Of a stretch of DNA of 64,000 nucleotides, positions 6,473-12,830 are shown piece after piece. The stretch lies in the NCBI GenBank assembly GCA_025062375.1, contig JANXAG010000001.1, positions 50,922-114,921 on the forward strand, read 5' to 3'. This DNA is from Anaerolineae bacterium. GTDB taxonomy: Bacteria; Chloroflexota; Anaerolineae; SpSt-600. Position numbers and translations under genes: made by a program. The first letter of the stretch is position 1; each line of letters opens with the position of its first letter. The notes beneath the pieces were generated by a model that worked only from the letters and a program-made list of their open reading frames with translations, made no database searches and was not told the DNA's origin.

Positions 6473-6859
6473 ATGGTTAAATCCATGACCCGTCGTCAGA
6501 AAAGGGTTGGAGAACTAATTCGGCGGGAGATAAGCACTTTGCTGGAAAGAAAAGTCAAAGACCCCCGTCTGAGTTTCGTAACGGTGACAGATGTGGAGGT
6601 TACTTTTGATCTCAAAGACGCCTTCATTTACGTCAGCGCTCCGGAGGGTCAGGTGCGCAAGGAAGAAATCCTGGAAGGCTTTGAAAGGGCTTCGGGTTTC
6701 CTGCGCCATGAGCTGGCCCAGAATCTCCGCATCAAATTTATCCCCCGCCTTAATTTTGTTTGGGATGATTCTCTGGAACGGGGGCAGCGCATTAACCAGC
6801 TCCTCCGGGAGATAAAAGAAAGGGAAAATGTCCAAAGAAGCGATAGTCAAGAGCCTTAA
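6473..6859 (+). CDS. rbfA: Ribosome-binding factor A
   Basis: The ~128-aa protein begins 'RRQKRVGELIRREISTLL' (KH-like RbfA fold) and lies directly downstream of infB. Confidence 0.9.
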   Translation: MVKSMTRRQKRVGELIRREISTLLERKVKDPRLSFVTVTDVEVTFDLKDAFIYVSAPEGQVRKEEILEGFERASGFLRHELAQNLRIKFIPRLNFVWDDSLERGQRINQLLREIKERENVQRSDSQEP

Positions 6860-7775
6860 CGAAGCCAATAAAATCCTGATTCTAACCCACATTGACCCCG
6901 ATGGAGATGCTATTGGTTCTGTGCTTGGGCTGGGTTTAGCACTAGAGAAGATCGGGAAAAAGGTGATTATGGCCTGCCAGGACCCAGTCCCCAGACGGTT
7001 CCTCTATCTGCCGGGAAGCCAGAGGATAATCCCATACCCCTCCGGTTCCTTTGAAGTGGTGGTATCTCTTGACGTTAACGATATCAAGCGATTGGGGAAA
7101 GCTTACCATAAAGAGCTCCTGGGCCATTTGCCTCTTTTAAACATCGATCATCACATCACTAACCTCTACTTTGGAACTCTCAACTGGGTAGAGCCGCAGG
7201 CGGCGGCTACAGCCGAAATGGTGCTGGAACTCCTTGATGAGCTCCATGCACCCATTGAGTCGGATGTGGCCCTTTGTCTCCTCAACGGCATTGTTACGGA
7301 TACCCAGGGCTTTCGGACGGCCAGCACTACTGCCAAAACTCTGGAAGCGGCTTTACGGCTTCAGAAGGCTGGGGCAAACCTCCATCAGGTTATGACTTAC
7401 GCCTTTAACCACCATTCCCTGAAGATGCTTCAGCTCTGGAGCAAACTCCTGGGACGGGTACAGTTCAAGGATGGAATTATATGGGTAGACAAACCCCGCT
7501 CAATTCTGCAGGAACTGGAGCTGGTAGAAGACAATGACTCTGGACTGGTGAATTTCCTTTTGGGGGTAGAGGGGGTCAAAATAGCGGTTATCTTCACCGA
7601 AAAACCTGGCGGGGAAGTGGATGTAAGCCTGCGCTCCGCGCCCGGGATAGACCTCTCAACGGTCGCGGTCAAACTCGGAGGAGGTGGCCATCCCCAGGCT
7701 GCTGGCTGTCGCCTTAAGGGGAGTTTGGAGGAGGTTAAGAAAATAGTGCTGGAAGAACTTTTCAAGTTCACCTAA
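6828..7775 (+). CDS. nrnA: DHH/DHHA1 phosphoesterase, NrnA-type nanoRNase / pAp phosphatase
   Basis: The DHH motif context is 'THIDPDGDAIGS' and 'DHH', and the C-terminus has 'GGGH'. The gene follows rbfA in the conserved position. Confidence 0.8.
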   Translation: MSKEAIVKSLNEANKILILTHIDPDGDAIGSVLGLGLALEKIGKKVIMACQDPVPRRFLYLPGSQRIIPYPSGSFEVVVSLDVNDIKRLGKAYHKELLGHLPLLNIDHHITNLYFGTLNWVEPQAAATAEMVLELLDELHAPIESDVALCLLNGIVTDTQGFRTASTTAKTLEAALRLQKAGANLHQVMTYAFNHHSLKMLQLWSKLLGRVQFKDGIIWVDKPRSILQELELVEDNDSGLVNFLLGVEGVKIAVIFTEKPGGEVDVSLRSAPGIDLSTVAVKLGGGGHPQAAGCRLKGSLEEVKKIVLEELFKFT

Positions 7776-7833
7776 AGCTGACTTTTTACCTCTGGCGCTG
7801 GCTTCTTGCTTTCCCCGGGAGCACAAAAGGTGT

Positions 7834-8706
7834 ATGAAACCTGAACTTTCGGGAATTCTCAACATCAATAAACCCAGAGGCCTTACCTCCCACGATGTAG
7901 TGGACAGAGTACGGAAAATAAGTGGGGTCCGAAAAGTCGGGCATGCTGGGACTCTTGACCCCATAGCTACAGGTGTTTTAGTTATATGCCTGGGGAAAGC
8001 TACTAAGCTCGTCCGTTTTATAACCGAAAGCCCGAAGACTTACAGAACCACACTGCGTTTGGGCATAAGCACTAACACTCACGATGCCGAAGGCGAGGTG
8101 GTCCGGGAGGCACCCGTAAACACCTCTATGGAAGAGATCAAAGAAGCCCTTAAGGAGTTTACCGGCACTATAGAACAAATCCCGCCTTTGTTTTCAGCTA
8201 TAAAAGTAAAAGGGAAACGCCTTTACGAGCTGGCCCGAGAAGGCAAAGAAGTAAGCCCTCCTCCCCGGAGGGTAGAAATTTACCGCCTGGAACTATTGGA
8301 GTGGGATAACCCTTTCCTTACTCTGGAGATAGAATGTTCCCATGGAACTTACATAAGAGCCTTAGCCAGGGACCTAGGAGAAAGGCTTGGGTGTGGTGCC
8401 CATGTGGCAGCGCTGACCCGGCTTAAAAGTGGGCGGTTCACTCTGGAAGAAGCTGTAACCCTTGAGGAACTGGAAACAGCTGGACTTAAACGATATTTGA
8501 TCCCGGCAGAAATAGCCGTGGCCGATCTTCCCGCTGTTATTTTGGAAAAGGGTGAAGAGAAAAGGATCCGCTTTGGTCAAAAGGTGAAGGGCAACCCTCA
8601 GGGAGGTGAAGGACTTCACAAAGTTTACTCCTTTGATGGGCGGTTTTTAGGCCTGGTGGAATGGGATAAGACTGCTAAGATGTGGCAACCGAGACTTGTG
8701 CTGTAG
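7834..8706 (+). CDS. truB: tRNA pseudouridine(55) synthase TruB
   Basis: The protein carries 'GHAGTLDPIATGVL' with the catalytic Asp and a PUA-like C-terminus. Confidence 0.95.
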   Translation: MKPELSGILNINKPRGLTSHDVVDRVRKISGVRKVGHAGTLDPIATGVLVICLGKATKLVRFITESPKTYRTTLRLGISTNTHDAEGEVVREAPVNTSMEEIKEALKEFTGTIEQIPPLFSAIKVKGKRLYELAREGKEVSPPPRRVEIYRLELLEWDNPFLTLEIECSHGTYIRALARDLGERLGCGAHVAALTRLKSGRFTLEEAVTLEELETAGLKRYLIPAEIAVADLPAVILEKGEEKRIRFGQKVKGNPQGGEGLHKVYSFDGRFLGLVEWDKTAKMWQPRLVL

Positions 8707-8709
8707 GCC

Positions 8710-10086
8710 ATGCAGCTGATAGATAACTTCTCCCAGGCTTACATAAACATAGAAAGTTTCATAACCATTGGAGCCTTTGATGGGGTGCATCGGGGTCACC
8801 AGCACCTTATTCGCACTTTGGTCAGAGAGGCTCATGAGAAAGGCTTCCTGGCTGGGCTTGTAACCTTTCATCCTCACCCATCCGTAGTGCTTAACCCATC
8901 AAACCCCACTCGTTACCTGACAACTCCTGGGGAAAAGGTTTCAATTTTAGAGAAGATGGATTTGGACCTGGTTGCAATCTTGCCCTTTGATGAAAAGATG
9001 GCCAGAACACCAGCCCGTGAGTTTATAGGACTCCTCTGTAAACACCTGAACTTGAAAGAACTATGGGTGGGGGCTGATTTTGCCCTGGGCTTCCGGCGGG
9101 AAGGAAATGTAGAGGTTTTAAAAGAACTCGGCCGAGAGATGGGATTTATGGTGCGAGTGGTAGAGCCCCTCTATTTTAAGGGTGAAATCATATCCAGCAC
9201 CCGTATCCGTAAGCTCATAGCCCTGGGAGAAGTTCGGGAAGCTGCCCAGCTGCTTGGCCGGTATTACAGCCTTGCTGGAGAAGTAGTTAGAGGCGAAGGC
9301 CGCGGCCGAAGCCTCGGTTTCCCCACCGCCAACCTGGAGGTAAGGCCCGAAAGGGTCATCCCAGCTGATGGAGTCTATGTGACCTACGTCCGGGTGGGGC
9401 GGGATAGGCTCTGGGGGGTTACCAACGTGGGCATAAGACCTACCTTTGACGGAGGGAAGCGTCTGGTGGAAACTTATATCCTGAATTTTGAGGGCGACCT
9501 TTACGGCTACGACCTGGTGGTTGAGTTTGTGGAGAGGCTGAGGCCAGAGATGAAATTTCCCTCCGTAGAAGAACTTACGCGGCAAATCCGAGAGGATGTG
9601 GAAAAAGCTTTGAGAATTCTCGAAAGAGAGGAAGCCCTGGGAGGTATAGAGAACATGCTGGAGCCAGTATATACTCCTTCCATCAAACGGTTTGAAGAAC
9701 TCCCCCATACGGCCGATAAGGCGATAAAAGTTTACGGCAGCACCTTGGAAGATATTTTCGTCAATGCTGCTTTTGGTATGTTCAGCCTTATGGTTGACCC
9801 GCAAGAGATAAAAGTTGAAGTAACGCGGGAGCTGGAACTTTCCTCCTTTGATACAGAATCACTCCTGGTTAAATGGCTCAACGAGCTCCTTTACCTTCAC
9901 GAAATTGAGGGGGAGCTTTACCGGGACTTTGAAATTGTTTACCTGGACGAGAAATCCCTCAAAGCCAGGGTCTGGGGGGGGAAAGGCTATCCTACCAAAG
10001 CCAAAGTTAAAGCCGCCACCTACCATCACCTTGAAATAAGGGACGTAGGTAAAGGCTATGAAGCCACAGTGGTTTTTGACACTTAG
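8710..10086 (+). CDS. ribF: Bifunctional riboflavin kinase / FAD synthetase (RibF) fused in frame to a C-terminal archease domain
   Basis: Residues 1-315 form a full-length RibF ('GAFDGVHRGHQHL', flavokinase 'GFPTANL...TYILNFEGDLYG'). Residues 316-458 are archease-like. No stop codon separates the two parts. Confidence 0.85.
   Translation: MQLIDNFSQAYINIESFITIGAFDGVHRGHQHLIRTLVREAHEKGFLAGLVTFHPHPSVVLNPSNPTRYLTTPGEKVSILEKMDLDLVAILPFDEKMARTPAREFIGLLCKHLNLKELWVGADFALGFRREGNVEVLKELGREMGFMVRVVEPLYFKGEIISSTRIRKLIALGEVREAAQLLGRYYSLAGEVVRGEGRGRSLGFPTANLEVRPERVIPADGVYVTYVRVGRDRLWGVTNVGIRPTFDGGKRLVETYILNFEGDLYGYDLVVEFVERLRPEMKFPSVEELTRQIREDVEKALRILEREEALGGIENMLEPVYTPSIKRFEELPHTADKAIKVYGSTLEDIFVNAAFGMFSLMVDPQEIKVEVTRELELSSFDTESLLVKWLNELLYLHEIEGELYRDFEIVYLDEKSLKARVWGGKGYPTKAKVKAATYHHLEIRDVGKGYEATVVFDT
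9655..10086 (+). other. Archease domain (RtcB-ligase / tRNA-m5C-methyltransferase chaperone family) as the C-terminal 144 aa of the ribF ORF; possibly also translated independently
   Basis: Archease signatures are present: 'FEELPHTADKAIKVYGSTLEDIFVNAAFGMFSLM', 'ESLLVKWLNELLYL' and 'ATYHHLEIRD'. The in-frame ATG at 9655 is preceded by GGGAGG (9638-9643). Confidence 0.65.
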
Positions 10087-11693
10087 AGGCGCATCAGTAT
10101 AGGGGCGATTTGTTTTTTGCGCGATGCTATCCCCTTCAGGGTCATAGAGTGAGGGCCCGAAAGTTTCAACCCCAACGCTTCAGCAATTTCCCTTTCTTTG
10201 CCCACTACCAGAAGCTCCGTTTCTTCCTCAAAGACGTTTACCAGCATTAATATCACGCTTATGTATCCTTTCTCTTCCTTCAACTTCCTCATTTCCTCCA
10301 GGAACTCATCCCGGCGTTTTTCCACAACAGTTCGGCCGTAAGTTTCCAAATAGCCTATTCCGAAGAGATTGTCGTTAAACTGATATTCTTTGAAATCGGA
10401 CATGAGAACCTCATGGGCGGGTTTATTAAGCAATTCTGAAGCGGCGCTGAAGAGTTCTTCGGCCAGGGCTTCGGGAGAAATGCCTGCAGCGGAAGCCAGA
10501 AAAGCGGCTATAGCCTTATCCTTGGGGGTTGTGGTGGGGGAACGGAAGAAGACTGTATCGCTTATAATAGCCCCCAGAAGCAGCCCTGCCAGAGGAGGAG
10601 CTATATTGAAACCGTTTTCCTGGAAGAGGGAAGCTATAATAGTGGATGTGGCTCCCACAGGTTCGCTTCGGACCATTATGGGGTTAGGGGTTTGGATGTC
10701 GCCTACCCGGTGATGGTCAATGATGGCTATAATTTCCGCCTCGTCAAGCCCCACCACCGATTGACTCCGTTCGTTGTGGTCCACAAGAACCAGCCTGTAG
10801 CGCACTGGTTTGAGCAAATCAGACCTGGAAATCACTCCTTTTACTCTCCTTTCTTCGTCCAAGACGGGCAGGGTGCGCTGGCGAGCGAGGAGTCCTCTGG
10901 CTTCCTCTAAAAGGTCATTTTCTTCCACGAAAGCCACGTTTTCTTTCATGAAAAACTGGACAGGAGTGCTAAGAAGCATAAGTCTGGCTGTGGTGAAAGT
11001 ATGATAAGGTGAGGAAATAAGCGTTACATTGTGCTCCTTAGCCAGTTCAAGGATTTCATCGGAAACGGGAAGACCGCCGGTCACAATGATGGCTCCAACT
11101 CCTTTCTCTATAGCTGCCTTTTGAGCCTCTTCCCGATCACCGATTATCAAAATTGAGTCCGGTTCCAGATACTCAAGCATTTTGGGTAAGCTCATAGCAC
11201 CTATGTAAACTTTCTCCCTGACCGGGCGTGTGCCGCGATGGAGAAAATAACCTCCGAGGGTTTTCACTACTGATTCCAGGTCGGGGTATATCCTGTTGAG
11301 GAGGTGAGGGTCCATTTCTTCCAGAAGGATGGAAGAGAAATCTTCCACCGAAATCATGCCCAGAAGCCTGGATTCTTCATCCACTACTGGAATCGCCCTA
11401 ATGTTTTTTTCCTTGAAAATTTGACCGACTTTGTAGGCGGGGGTTAGAGGGGGTACAGTTATTGCCGGGGAGCTCATGGCGTCCCGCACTCGTGGTCTGG
11501 CGTCAGTGAAAAGGATAGGTTCGGGGAAACCGAACCGACGGAGCAGATAGGAGGTTTCGGGCCGTAACTCGCCCTGCCGGGCTGGGATGGCTTCTTCTCC
11601 TTTGAGGCGGAAGAGCTCAGCGCAAGCTATAGCTGCCACCACACAATCAGTATCGGGGTTTTTATGGCCTAAAACATAAATGGGGGTGCCCAT
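10083..11693 (-). CDS. ppaC: CBS-domain-containing family II (DHH-DHHA2, Mn-dependent) inorganic pyrophosphatase
   Basis: It has 'HKNPDTDCVVAAIA' (DHH), a DRTGG-like segment, two CBS motifs, and 'DHH...' then DHHA2 'GIGYLETYG'. I chose the start at M57 (11693) and find the upstream extension of the tracked ORF unlikely. Confidence 0.8.
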   Translation of the reverse strand: MGTPIYVLGHKNPDTDCVVAAIACAELFRLKGEEAIPARQGELRPETSYLLRRFGFPEPILFTDARPRVRDAMSSPAITVPPLTPAYKVGQIFKEKNIRAIPVVDEESRLLGMISVEDFSSILLEEMDPHLLNRIYPDLESVVKTLGGYFLHRGTRPVREKVYIGAMSLPKMLEYLEPDSILIIGDREEAQKAAIEKGVGAIIVTGGLPVSDEILELAKEHNVTLISSPYHTFTTARLMLLSTPVQFFMKENVAFVEENDLLEEARGLLARQRTLPVLDEERRVKGVISRSDLLKPVRYRLVLVDHNERSQSVVGLDEAEIIAIIDHHRVGDIQTPNPIMVRSEPVGATSTIIASLFQENGFNIAPPLAGLLLGAIISDTVFFRSPTTTPKDKAIAAFLASAAGISPEALAEELFSAASELLNKPAHEVLMSDFKEYQFNDNLFGIGYLETYGRTVVEKRRDEFLEEMRKLKEEKGYISVILMLVNVFEEETELLVVGKEREIAEALGLKLSGPHSMTLKGIASRKKQIAPILMRL

Positions 11694-11810
11694 TTTGTGT
11701 GCTCTTATTCTGGCTTTGGTTTTTATTATAAAAGCCACTGTTGGTCTGTCAAGTTGAGCCAAGAAGGCTTGCTCGGCGGCGACGTTTGCTATAAAATTTC
11801 TAAGGGGGAA

Positions 11811-12830
11811 ATGAAAACGGCGGAATTTGATTATTACCTTCCACCAGAACTTATAGCTCAAAGTCCTGTTGAACCACGAGACTCATCGCGCCTCATGGTT
11901 CTTCACAGGGCTACTGGCTTTATTGAACACAGGATTTTCAGGGAGATTGTGGACTACATAAACCCGGGTGACGTCCTCGTAGCTAACCAGAGCCGTGTGA
12001 TACCAGCGCGCCTTTACGGCTATAAATTACCGACCGGCGGCAAAATAGAGTTATTGCTCGTTTCTCGCAGGGGGGAAAGGCTCTGGGAGGCCCTGGTCAA
12101 GGGAAGAAAGATCAAGGAAGGGACTAAACTCTGGGTAGGGAAAGAGGGGAAAGGAGTTACAGGGATTGTGGTGGGGATAACTGAGGCCGGAAGCAGGCTT
12201 ATAGAATTTGAAACTCCTATTGAGCCCGTTATCCGGGAAATCGGTTCCATTCCTCTACCTCCTTACATCCATCAACCTATTTCAGACCCCGAACGCTATC
12301 AGACTATTTTTGCCCGAGTTGAAGGGTCGGTGGCTGCCCCTACCGCTGGCCTGCATTTTACTCCGGAGCTTATGCGCCGCATTGAGGAAAAGGGAGGTAG
12401 GTTTGTCTTTGTAACGCTTCACATAGGCCTTGACACTTTCAGACCCGTTAAAGAGGAAAACGTTGAAGAACACAAAATGCATTCTGAATATTGCGAGCTG
12501 AGCGAAGAAGTAGCAGAAGAAATAAACCAGGCCCGACGCGAAGGCCGAAGGATAATAGCTGTTGGAACTACTTCTGTGAGGGTTCTGGAGACAGCTGCCT
12601 CAGAGGAGGGAGTGCGGCCTTTTCGGGGTCAAACAGACCTATTTATATATCCGGGCTATCGCTTCAAGGTGGTAGATGCTCTTATTACAAACTTTCACCT
12701 TCCCCGTTCAACCCTCATAATGCTTGTTTCGGCTTTTGCGGGAAAGGACTTTATAATGCGGGCTTATCAGGAAGCCGTAAGACTTCGCTATAGGTTCTAC
12801 AGTTTCGGCGATGCAATGTTGATCCTTTAA
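11811..12830 (+). CDS. queA: S-adenosylmethionine:tRNA ribosyltransferase-isomerase QueA
   Basis: The protein begins 'FDYYLPPELIAQSPVEPRDSSRLMVL' and has 'VAAPTAGLHFT'. An AGGGGG RBS precedes the ATG at 11811. Confidence 0.9.
   Translation: MKTAEFDYYLPPELIAQSPVEPRDSSRLMVLHRATGFIEHRIFREIVDYINPGDVLVANQSRVIPARLYGYKLPTGGKIELLLVSRRGERLWEALVKGRKIKEGTKLWVGKEGKGVTGIVVGITEAGSRLIEFETPIEPVIREIGSIPLPPYIHQPISDPERYQTIFARVEGSVAAPTAGLHFTPELMRRIEEKGGRFVFVTLHIGLDTFRPVKEENVEEHKMHSEYCELSEEVAEEINQARREGRRIIAVGTTSVRVLETAASEEGVRPFRGQTDLFIYPGYRFKVVDALITNFHLPRSTLIMLVSAFAGKDFIMRAYQEAVRLRYRFYSFGDAMLIL

Follow-up and report, generated by a model that had tools for sequence, protein, structure and literature searches.

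A riboflavin kinase/FAD synthetase fused to archease in Anaerolineae and the gene order from which the fusion may have arisen

The window, i.e. the whole 64-kb stretch of Anaerolineae DNA that was analysed, carries an operon with the order nusA-ylxR-infB-rbfA-DHH/DHHA1-truB-ribF::archease. Its last gene starts with an ATG located 4 nt past the truB stop and joins a riboflavin kinase/FAD synthetase (RibF) to archease in one reading frame. Domain annotation bears out the context proposed in the first-pass annotation, which had the fusion close a nusA-infB-rbfA-nrnA-truB-ribF operon. A convergent gene, given here for context only, overlaps the fusion stop by its own stop. The features of the locus are as follows:

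7834-8706, + strand: truB, the upstream operon neighbour (ORF list and domain search)
8710-10086, + strand: complete ribF::archease fusion ORF, 458 codons plus a TAG stop
8752-9204, + strand: FMN adenylyltransferase (FMNAT) module (FAD_syn, PF06574), residues 15-165, Pfam 3e-45
9253-9621, + strand: riboflavin kinase (RFK) module (Flavokinase, PF01687), residues 182-304, Pfam 1e-44
9625-9690, + strand: linker, residues 306-327, delimited from the alignment of fusions
9639-9644, + strand: Shine-Dalgarno (SD)-like GGGAGG inside the linker, conserved in five clade members
9655-9657, + strand: in-frame ATG (Met316), 10 nt past GGGAGG, candidate start of a free 143-residue archease
9691-10083, + strand: archease domain (Pfam PF01951), residues 328-458, reaching the protein C-terminus
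9706-9717, + strand: HTAD motif, H333-D336, aligned with H9 and D12 of Pyrococcus horikoshii archease and with human D51 (the metal-binding Asp); invariant in 26 fusions
10009-10011, + strand: K434 (KAAT), matching P. horikoshii K117 and human K156
10078-10083, + strand: D457-T458 with the free C-terminal carboxylate, matching P. horikoshii D141-I142 and human D178-I179
10083-11861, - strand: convergent DHH-CBS-DRTGG-DHHA2 gene, whose stop overlaps the fusion stop by 4 nt

The gene encodes a three-module protein, composed of an FMN adenylyltransferase, a riboflavin kinase and a C-terminal archease. A full RibF fused in frame to a complete archease had been read from the sequence, and FAD_syn, Flavokinase and Archease are indeed all matched in Pfam (E ≤1e-36, in order of magnitude). 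The fusion protein scores 317.8 with the NCBIfam RibF equivalog NF004160 (cut-off 295) and 250.6 with TIGR00083 (cut-off 184), and its score of 110.5 bits with NF001617 is under the equivalog cut-off of 126 for that model. With both modules present and a curated equivalog cut-off passed, the RibF part is classified by sequence as a type I FAD synthetase. Residues of the FMNAT motifs GAFDGVHRGHQ and ISSTRIR are invariant in 26 aligned fusion proteins, and the GFPTANL motif and E254 of the RFK module form invariant columns of the same alignment. The positions concerned, H27-R-G-H30, S162-S163-T164...R167, P205-T206-A207-N208 and E254, are invariant or nearly so. On the model of the Corynebacterium ammoniagenes FAD synthetase (FADS), we take H-x-G-H, S-S-T-x-x-R, P-T-A-N and a catalytic Glu to be the catalytic motifs of these enzymes.

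A search of the C-terminal half with the archease profile, suggested as a check on the first reading, gave a significant and nearly full-length match to PF01951 (residues 328-457, E 1.9e-36; 125.8 bits, cut-off 25), which spans positions 1-135 of the 136-position profile. The HTAD and ATYHHLEI signatures noticed earlier lie at residues 333-336 and within KAATYHHLEI at residues 434-443. PDB entries matched in sequence by the archease part (4n2p, 1jw3 and 8btx) form the basis of the residue alignment, in which the metal-binding tip (H-x-x-D, Lys, and an Asp as the penultimate residue) is present in full. All 26 aligned fusions terminate exactly one residue past the Asp equivalent to D457. The linker, conserved in the window's own clade, varies widely among the fused groups in length (about 10-60 residues) and in sequence.

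The importance of these residues is known from two systems. In the human RTCB-Archease complex, the activating Mn2+(C) is coordinated by Archease residues D51 and D178 and by the I179 terminal carboxylate, and K156 and D178 touch the phosphate (PMC10944509). In P. horikoshii, archease variants D12A and D141A, deletion of I142, and variants at H9 and K117 lose RtcB activation (PMC3973293). As judged from the alignment, the archease module of the fusion retains every residue known to be required for RtcB activation, namely H333, D336, K434, D457 and the free C-terminus.

An AlphaFold2 (AF2) model of the fusion has a mean pLDDT of 87.8 and a pTM of 0.69, with pLDDT values of about 90-97 across most of the archease domain and 60-70 in the linker. 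Foldseek aligns the RibF part with the FAD synthetases 2x0k and 3op1 (TM 0.83-0.88), the C. ammoniagenes enzyme 2x0k matching the FMNAT fold with a TM of 0.83, and the Flavokinase part with the RFK modules 5a88 and 5a89. The archease part superposes on 8odo_D (human Archease bound to RTCB) and on 8btx with an rmsd of 2.2 Å and a TM of 0.74-0.78. The model thus predicts an archease fold of two interleaved SHS2 modules in its compact monomeric form, and not the strand-swapped dimer, which superposes at about 12 Å.

The fusion is far from unique. A protein identical to that of the window is found in NCBI (P0001, from the Anaerolineae MAG GCA_033580795.1), where it is annotated as 'bifunctional riboflavin kinase/FAD synthetase'. 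The best 120 matches considered from a search of a 5.8-billion-protein database all measure 438-494 residues and carry the same three Pfam domains, with identities from 100% down to 48%. Assemblies of NCBI, JGI, ENA and Logan are all represented among these homologues. In the window's clade, three further species (L002-L004) each possess a gap-free fusion ORF of 458 codons, and the fusion proteins of the four species are 85-91% identical, with saturated synonymous sites; more distant proteins at 59-74% identity (P0005, P0007 and P0008) are fused as well. Since the record is a MAG and near relatives have separate overlapping genes, a single-base sequencing or assembly error that erased a stop or shifted the frame could mimic a fusion. 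The same ORF kept through saturated synonymous divergence and at least 120 fused clusters from independent sources effectively refute this artefact, and settle the early concern over a missed stop or frameshift.

Selection can be read within the window's clade, for which pN and pS are given instead of dN/dS, because saturated synonymous sites make the ratios unreliable. Values of pN are 0.04-0.08 for archease, 0.035-0.054 for FMNAT, 0.05-0.10 for RFK and 0-0.05 for the linker, against a saturated pS of 0.6-0.75. Purifying selection acts on the archease module as strongly as on the RibF modules. The lack of an adjacent rtcB in this clade could make it a functionless remnant, merely carried along after loss of rtcB, but such a reading is very improbable and already contradicted by constraint equal to that on the essential RibF modules, by the full-length Pfam match and by the preservation of all catalytic residues and of the exact C-terminal end. 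Collectively, selection, retained residues and the structural model indicate that the archease module is functional in the window protein.

Insight into the origin of the architecture comes from related loci. A profile scan with the junction plus archease, restricted to one genome per GTDB species, yielded at least 583 loci. The best 80 were kept, and the two parts of the fusion and RtcB served as queries against their six-frame ORFs. In 38 of these best 80 loci, ribF lies directly upstream of archease, in about 20 cases fused and in 18 separate; all 38 are from Anaerolineae, Caldilineales or unclassified Chloroflexota. Downstream of archease, rtcB is found in 18/18 separate loci (at 3.7 kb in one of them) and in 12 fused ones, mostly starting some tens to hundreds of bases further on. 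The identity of the downstream gene as RtcB was verified with PF01139 (8e-176 and 2e-173). Directly upstream of ribF, truB is present in nearly all Anaerolineae loci examined, usually together with the DHH/DHHA1 gene. In other phyla covered by the scan, the archease-rtcB pair stands alone, without ribF. Taxa with the stand-alone pair include Dehalococcoidia, Desulfobaccales, Planctomycetia, Cyanobacteria, Omnitrophota and Terriglobia. A variant in which FMNAT is joined to archease without a kinase module also exists (L048, P0140), and no relatives of the fusion were found among the viral contigs scanned. The adjacency of ribF and archease, with rtcB downstream and truB upstream in relatives, suggests truB-ribF-archease-rtcB as the ground plan of the class. 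Simple gene capture into the operon, one of two possibilities raised at first, is supported and can be made more precise: what lies directly behind ribF in Anaerolineae is an archease-rtcB pair. Separate, out-of-frame genes in relatives had been named as evidence that would speak against the fusion. They exist quite literally in 18 species, but about 20 others are fused, so the fusion, though real, is labile in evolution and not a settled innovation.

Junctions of the unfused loci show how little separates the two states. The ribF stop and archease start overlap as ATGA in five loci (L024, L026, L029, L042 and L065), as TGATG in two (L035 and L041) and by 8 nt in two more (L028 and L040). Elsewhere a gap follows the ribF stop, of 2 nt in L027, 8 nt in L020, 9 nt in L005, 17 nt in L058 and 60 nt in L015; in L005 and L015, archease stays in the ribF frame with a TAG stop between the two. 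Given that stop and start typically overlap, a one-base change would suffice to fuse the frames. Neighbour-joining (NJ) trees for each of the two parts, RibF and archease, recover the same groups, with fused and unfused states intermingled. At least five fused groups are distinguished (L001-L004; L006; L007-L013 with L017 and L025; L018-L022; and L010, L014 and L016), L006 being nested within an unfused clade. This interspersion points to at least five independent fusions, an approximate count given that short alignments and a simple NJ method were used, and makes a single origin unlikely.

Why such fusions are tolerated may be understood from the position of archease in its fusion proteins. 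Among 1.84 billion cluster representatives, searched exhaustively with phmmer, 6841 archease proteins were identified, and in all but 3 of the best 150 inspected the domain is at the extreme C-terminus. N-terminal partners among these 150 are RibF, FMNAT alone, MobB and an AAA_33/KTI12-like P-loop kinase. Archease being C-terminal whatever precedes it, it would seem appendable to any upstream protein, with nothing appendable after it. N-terminal additions are evidently compatible with archease, since His-tagged Archease crystallised with RTCB (PMC10944509).

The window's clade departs from the ground plan in two respects. The first concerns rtcB. The archease-rtcB adjacency seen in 30 of the 38 loci with ribF next to archease is not found in the window, where the convergent DHH-CBS-DRTGG-DHHA2 gene occupies the place of rtcB in relatives; L002-L004 are arranged alike. 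Searches of the 64-kb window by phmmer and tblastn with Pfam-verified Anaerolineae RtcB found no match, nor did an E. coli RtcB probe, which detected RtcB in 60+ other loci. No second archease copy occurs in the 64-kb window or in the L002-L004 flanks, and rtcB was not found in the 3.5-10 kb downstream in L002-L004, L010, L014, L082 and L084. On the same branch, P0005 (74% identity) and P0008 (59%; the same as L082), from Guaymas/hydrothermal metagenomes, are fused with no downstream rtcB and have downstream genes that differ from one another. L010 and L014 constitute a second case of fusion without downstream rtcB.

The second peculiarity is a putative internal start. The GGGAGG located 10 nt before the in-frame ATG at 9655, already pointed out in the first-pass annotation, is verified in the sequence, and GGGAGG with ATG (Met316) is kept in L001-L004 and L084. 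Conservation is seen at the nucleotide level. The base preceding the Gly-Gly codons is G in 5/5 genes, though the amino acid varies (Leu, Met or Ala), and GGA encodes the first Gly in 5/5 genes; as background, 8/114 conserved four-fold sites and 2/34 conserved Gly codons are identical across the five genes. Predicted anti-SD duplex energies of the GGGAGG sites range from -10.2 to -11.6 kcal/mol, among the best 0.3-2% of candidate internal starts. A GAGGAGG-N5-ATG occurs at a different linker position in L082 (P0008). Set against 658 further start-like codons in frame, the duplex energies of all these sites rank in the top 0-2%. Because the SD-ATG is conserved beyond the needs of the protein sequence, a free archease of ~143 residues is probably translated as well in the window's clade. 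The remaining fused clades show no comparable SD-ATG site or no in-frame start whatever, so that archease there must act as a fusion. Over positions 6500-12200, promoter and terminator counts do not exceed those of shuffled sequence, and the promoter scan found no internal promoter ahead of the archease part.

Altogether, these data are best explained by a permissive and recurrent fusion of coupled neighbour genes, after which archease would still serve RtcB in trans, a reading to which we assign a probability of about 0.6. An Anaerolineae nusA-infB-rbfA-nrnA-truB-ribF operon would have been extended by an archease-rtcB pair, i.e. a known RNA-ligase activator with its ligase. A single-base change at the overlapping ribF stop and archease start would merge the frames, repeatedly so. 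As the archease C-terminus has to be free, its carboxylate and the preceding Asp binding the activating Mn2+ and the GTP γ-phosphate, and as an N-terminal extension on a flexible linker is accepted, the fusion would be tolerated. The RibF part presumably makes FMN and FAD as usual, and archease most likely continues to act in trans as an activator of RtcB guanylylation. In the window's clade, rtcB would have moved out of the locus, with RtcB encoded elsewhere in the genome, and the conserved internal SD-ATG would probably supply free 143-residue archease in addition. A link between flavins and RNA repair or modification, the other possibility raised at first, found no positive support. Such a link does not seem needed, since the gene order in relatives accounts for the fusion as a merger of overlapping neighbours in a ribF-archease-rtcB cluster.

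A functional coupling nevertheless deserves consideration, in which archease acts in cis or within an oligomer on RibF, or ties FAD supply to RNA repair. In one form of it, archease would hold metal and ATP in position for the FMN adenylyltransferase reaction; like RtcB guanylylation, this reaction transfers a nucleotidyl group and releases PPi. At least five independent fusions are in its favour, as are the strong purifying selection on the fusion where rtcB is not adjacent, the FMNAT-archease architecture devoid of a kinase module, the fusion of archease to MobB (another nucleotide-binding cofactor protein) and the pTM of the three-domain model. We regard this coupling as unlikely, because the genes are separate in 18 species, the linker is highly variable, archease fuses to whatever is upstream, and its conserved residues are exactly those serving RtcB activation, with rtcB next in line in most relatives. 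In addition, the literature searched ties archease to no flavin metabolism.

An explanation of similarly low probability is that rtcB was lost in the window's clade and that archease now serves another RNA enzyme, for example a tRNA m5C methyltransferase or one of the modification enzymes of the operon, such as TruB. Purifying selection on archease in a locus and a 64-kb window without rtcB would fit, and many genes of the operon concern tRNA and translation. Moreover, archease is reported to assist a tRNA m5C methyltransferase of Pyrococcus abyssi, in work cited by PMC3973293. But none of the metal- and NTP-binding residues peculiar to the mechanism of RtcB has been lost, 64 kb is a small part of a genome so that rtcB may be elsewhere, and no other candidate partner is a constant neighbour, as L001, L082 and L084 differ in the gene that follows. 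Slightly more doubtful still is an RtcB-independent job of archease tied to cofactor synthesis. It could take the form of a metal/NTP-positioning cofactor for FMN adenylyltransferase, or for nucleotidyl transferases generally, in keeping with the existence of FMNAT-archease and MobB-archease fusions in other proteins. Its starting point is that the fusion has persisted in the window's clade after rtcB left the locus, with archease as constrained as the essential RibF modules. Compared with these alternatives, permissive fusion with action on RtcB in trans is the reading retained here.

In the literature searched, archease was not found together with RibF, FAD synthetase or riboflavin kinase, nor rtcB or archease together with Anaerolineae. 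The RibF-archease architecture and the truB-ribF-archease-rtcB cluster are therefore undescribed in that literature, in line with the initial remark that no such fusion was known. The architecture is nonetheless visible in databases, where precomputed Pfam matches list all three domains. Hundreds of 'bifunctional riboflavin kinase/FAD synthetase' annotations hide an unannotated archease domain, and a class-wide truB-ribF-archease-rtcB arrangement is documented here for Anaerolineae. The case also calls for caution, in that a 'Rosetta-stone' reading would wrongly tie flavin metabolism to RNA repair where gene order offers a simpler account. Seen as an evolutionary experiment, the natural fusions with their C-terminal archease fit the role of the terminal carboxylate as a metal ligand, and in the clades without an internal start an N-terminal load of 35 kDa is apparently compatible with function. 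The window's clade, which combines fusion and putative internal start with no adjacent rtcB, constitutes a test case for an RtcB-independent role of archease.

Among known systems, the Archease-RtcB operon of tRNA splicing and RNA repair (Desai et al. 2014, PMC3973293; human RTCB-Archease complex in Gerber et al. 2024, PMC10944509) is one of the closest to the fusion. The fusion shares with it the archease fold, the metal/NTP-binding residues and, in most Anaerolineae relatives, the rtcB immediately downstream. It differs in that the Anaerolineae pair is appended to a nusA-truB-ribF operon, that archease is covalently joined to RibF and that rtcB is neither adjacent in the window's clade nor present in the 64 kb. 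With the type I FAD synthetases RibF of C. ammoniagenes (FADS 2x0k) and Thermotoga maritima (TM379 1mrz) it has in common the FMNAT and RFK modules, the signature motifs and the structure, but it adds a C-terminal extension of ~150 residues, linker plus archease, found in no characterised FADS. Precedents for FAD-forming enzymes with an additional domain are the plant FADS fused to an inactivated FAD pyrophosphatase (PMC9678776) and the human FADS, which carries a molybdopterin-binding-like domain (PMC3546728). The domains added in plants and humans relate to flavin/nucleotide metabolism, whereas archease is without a known flavin role.

Gene fusion through stop-codon loss between translationally coupled overlapping genes is a general phenomenon. 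The present case conforms to it through the ATGA and TGATG overlaps at the exact junction in unfused relatives and through the alternation of states among close relatives. It stands apart from it in the window's clade, where the internal SD-ATG that is kept suggests that the second product may still be made on its own.

In two relatives, ribF and archease share one reading frame and are separated by a TAG stop codon that is followed by an ATG:

L005, 2118-2132: TAG between ribF and archease, then ATG 9 nt on
L015, 9038-9103: TAG between ribF and archease, then ATG 60 nt on

These junctions could represent either an intermediate state or candidates for stop-codon read-through. A gene of Anaerolineae bin.56 lacks the riboflavin kinase module and joins an FMN adenylyltransferase (FAD_syn) domain straight to archease, an architecture shared by the database homologue P0140 (323 aa). 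Upstream lie truB and nrnA, with a 597-aa ORF, possibly inserted, in between; rtcB follows on the 3' side:

L048, 9413-10399: FAD_syn-archease gene
L048, 10569-12116: rtcB

Among the best 150 archease representatives, all but three carry the archease domain at the extreme C-terminus. Two further fusions with C-terminal archease occur in this set, P0180 (323 aa) and P0242 (351 aa); one is of the MobB (molybdopterin-guanine dinucleotide biosynthesis GTPase)-archease type and the other joins archease to an AAA_33/KTI12-like P-loop kinase.

Behind the window fusion, the slot held by rtcB in relatives is taken by a convergent gene, the two stop codons overlapping by 4 nt:

Window 10083-11861 (-): gene of a DHH-CBS-DRTGG-DHHA2 protein (CBS-regulated family II pyrophosphatase-like)
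Window 11752-11725 (-): perfect TTGACA-16-TATAAT

This promoter-like element falls inside the ORF as listed, which has 592 aa, so the gene's real start probably lies further downstream; the publicly called gene has 536 aa. In an independently fused species, a gap of ∼660 nt separates the fusion gene from rtcB, compared with tight spacing in other loci:

L006, 2394-3056: gap between fusion gene and rtcB

In many fusions outside the window clade, the linker ends in a conserved Cys-x-Tyr-Arg-Tyr/Phe motif, directly before E-x-E-HTAD (columns about 390-404 of alignment A1 of 26 fusion proteins; e.g. P0012, P0015, P0088 and P0107). The window clade lacks this motif and has GGIENMLEPVYTPS in its place. 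In Caldilineales MAG_24, YTAD replaces the otherwise invariant HTAD of the archease module:

L014, 4304-5662: fusion gene with YTAD

No rtcB is found downstream of this gene at the locus. In Pyrococcus horikoshii archease, His9, the counterpart of the HTAD histidine, is important for RtcB activation (PMC3973293).
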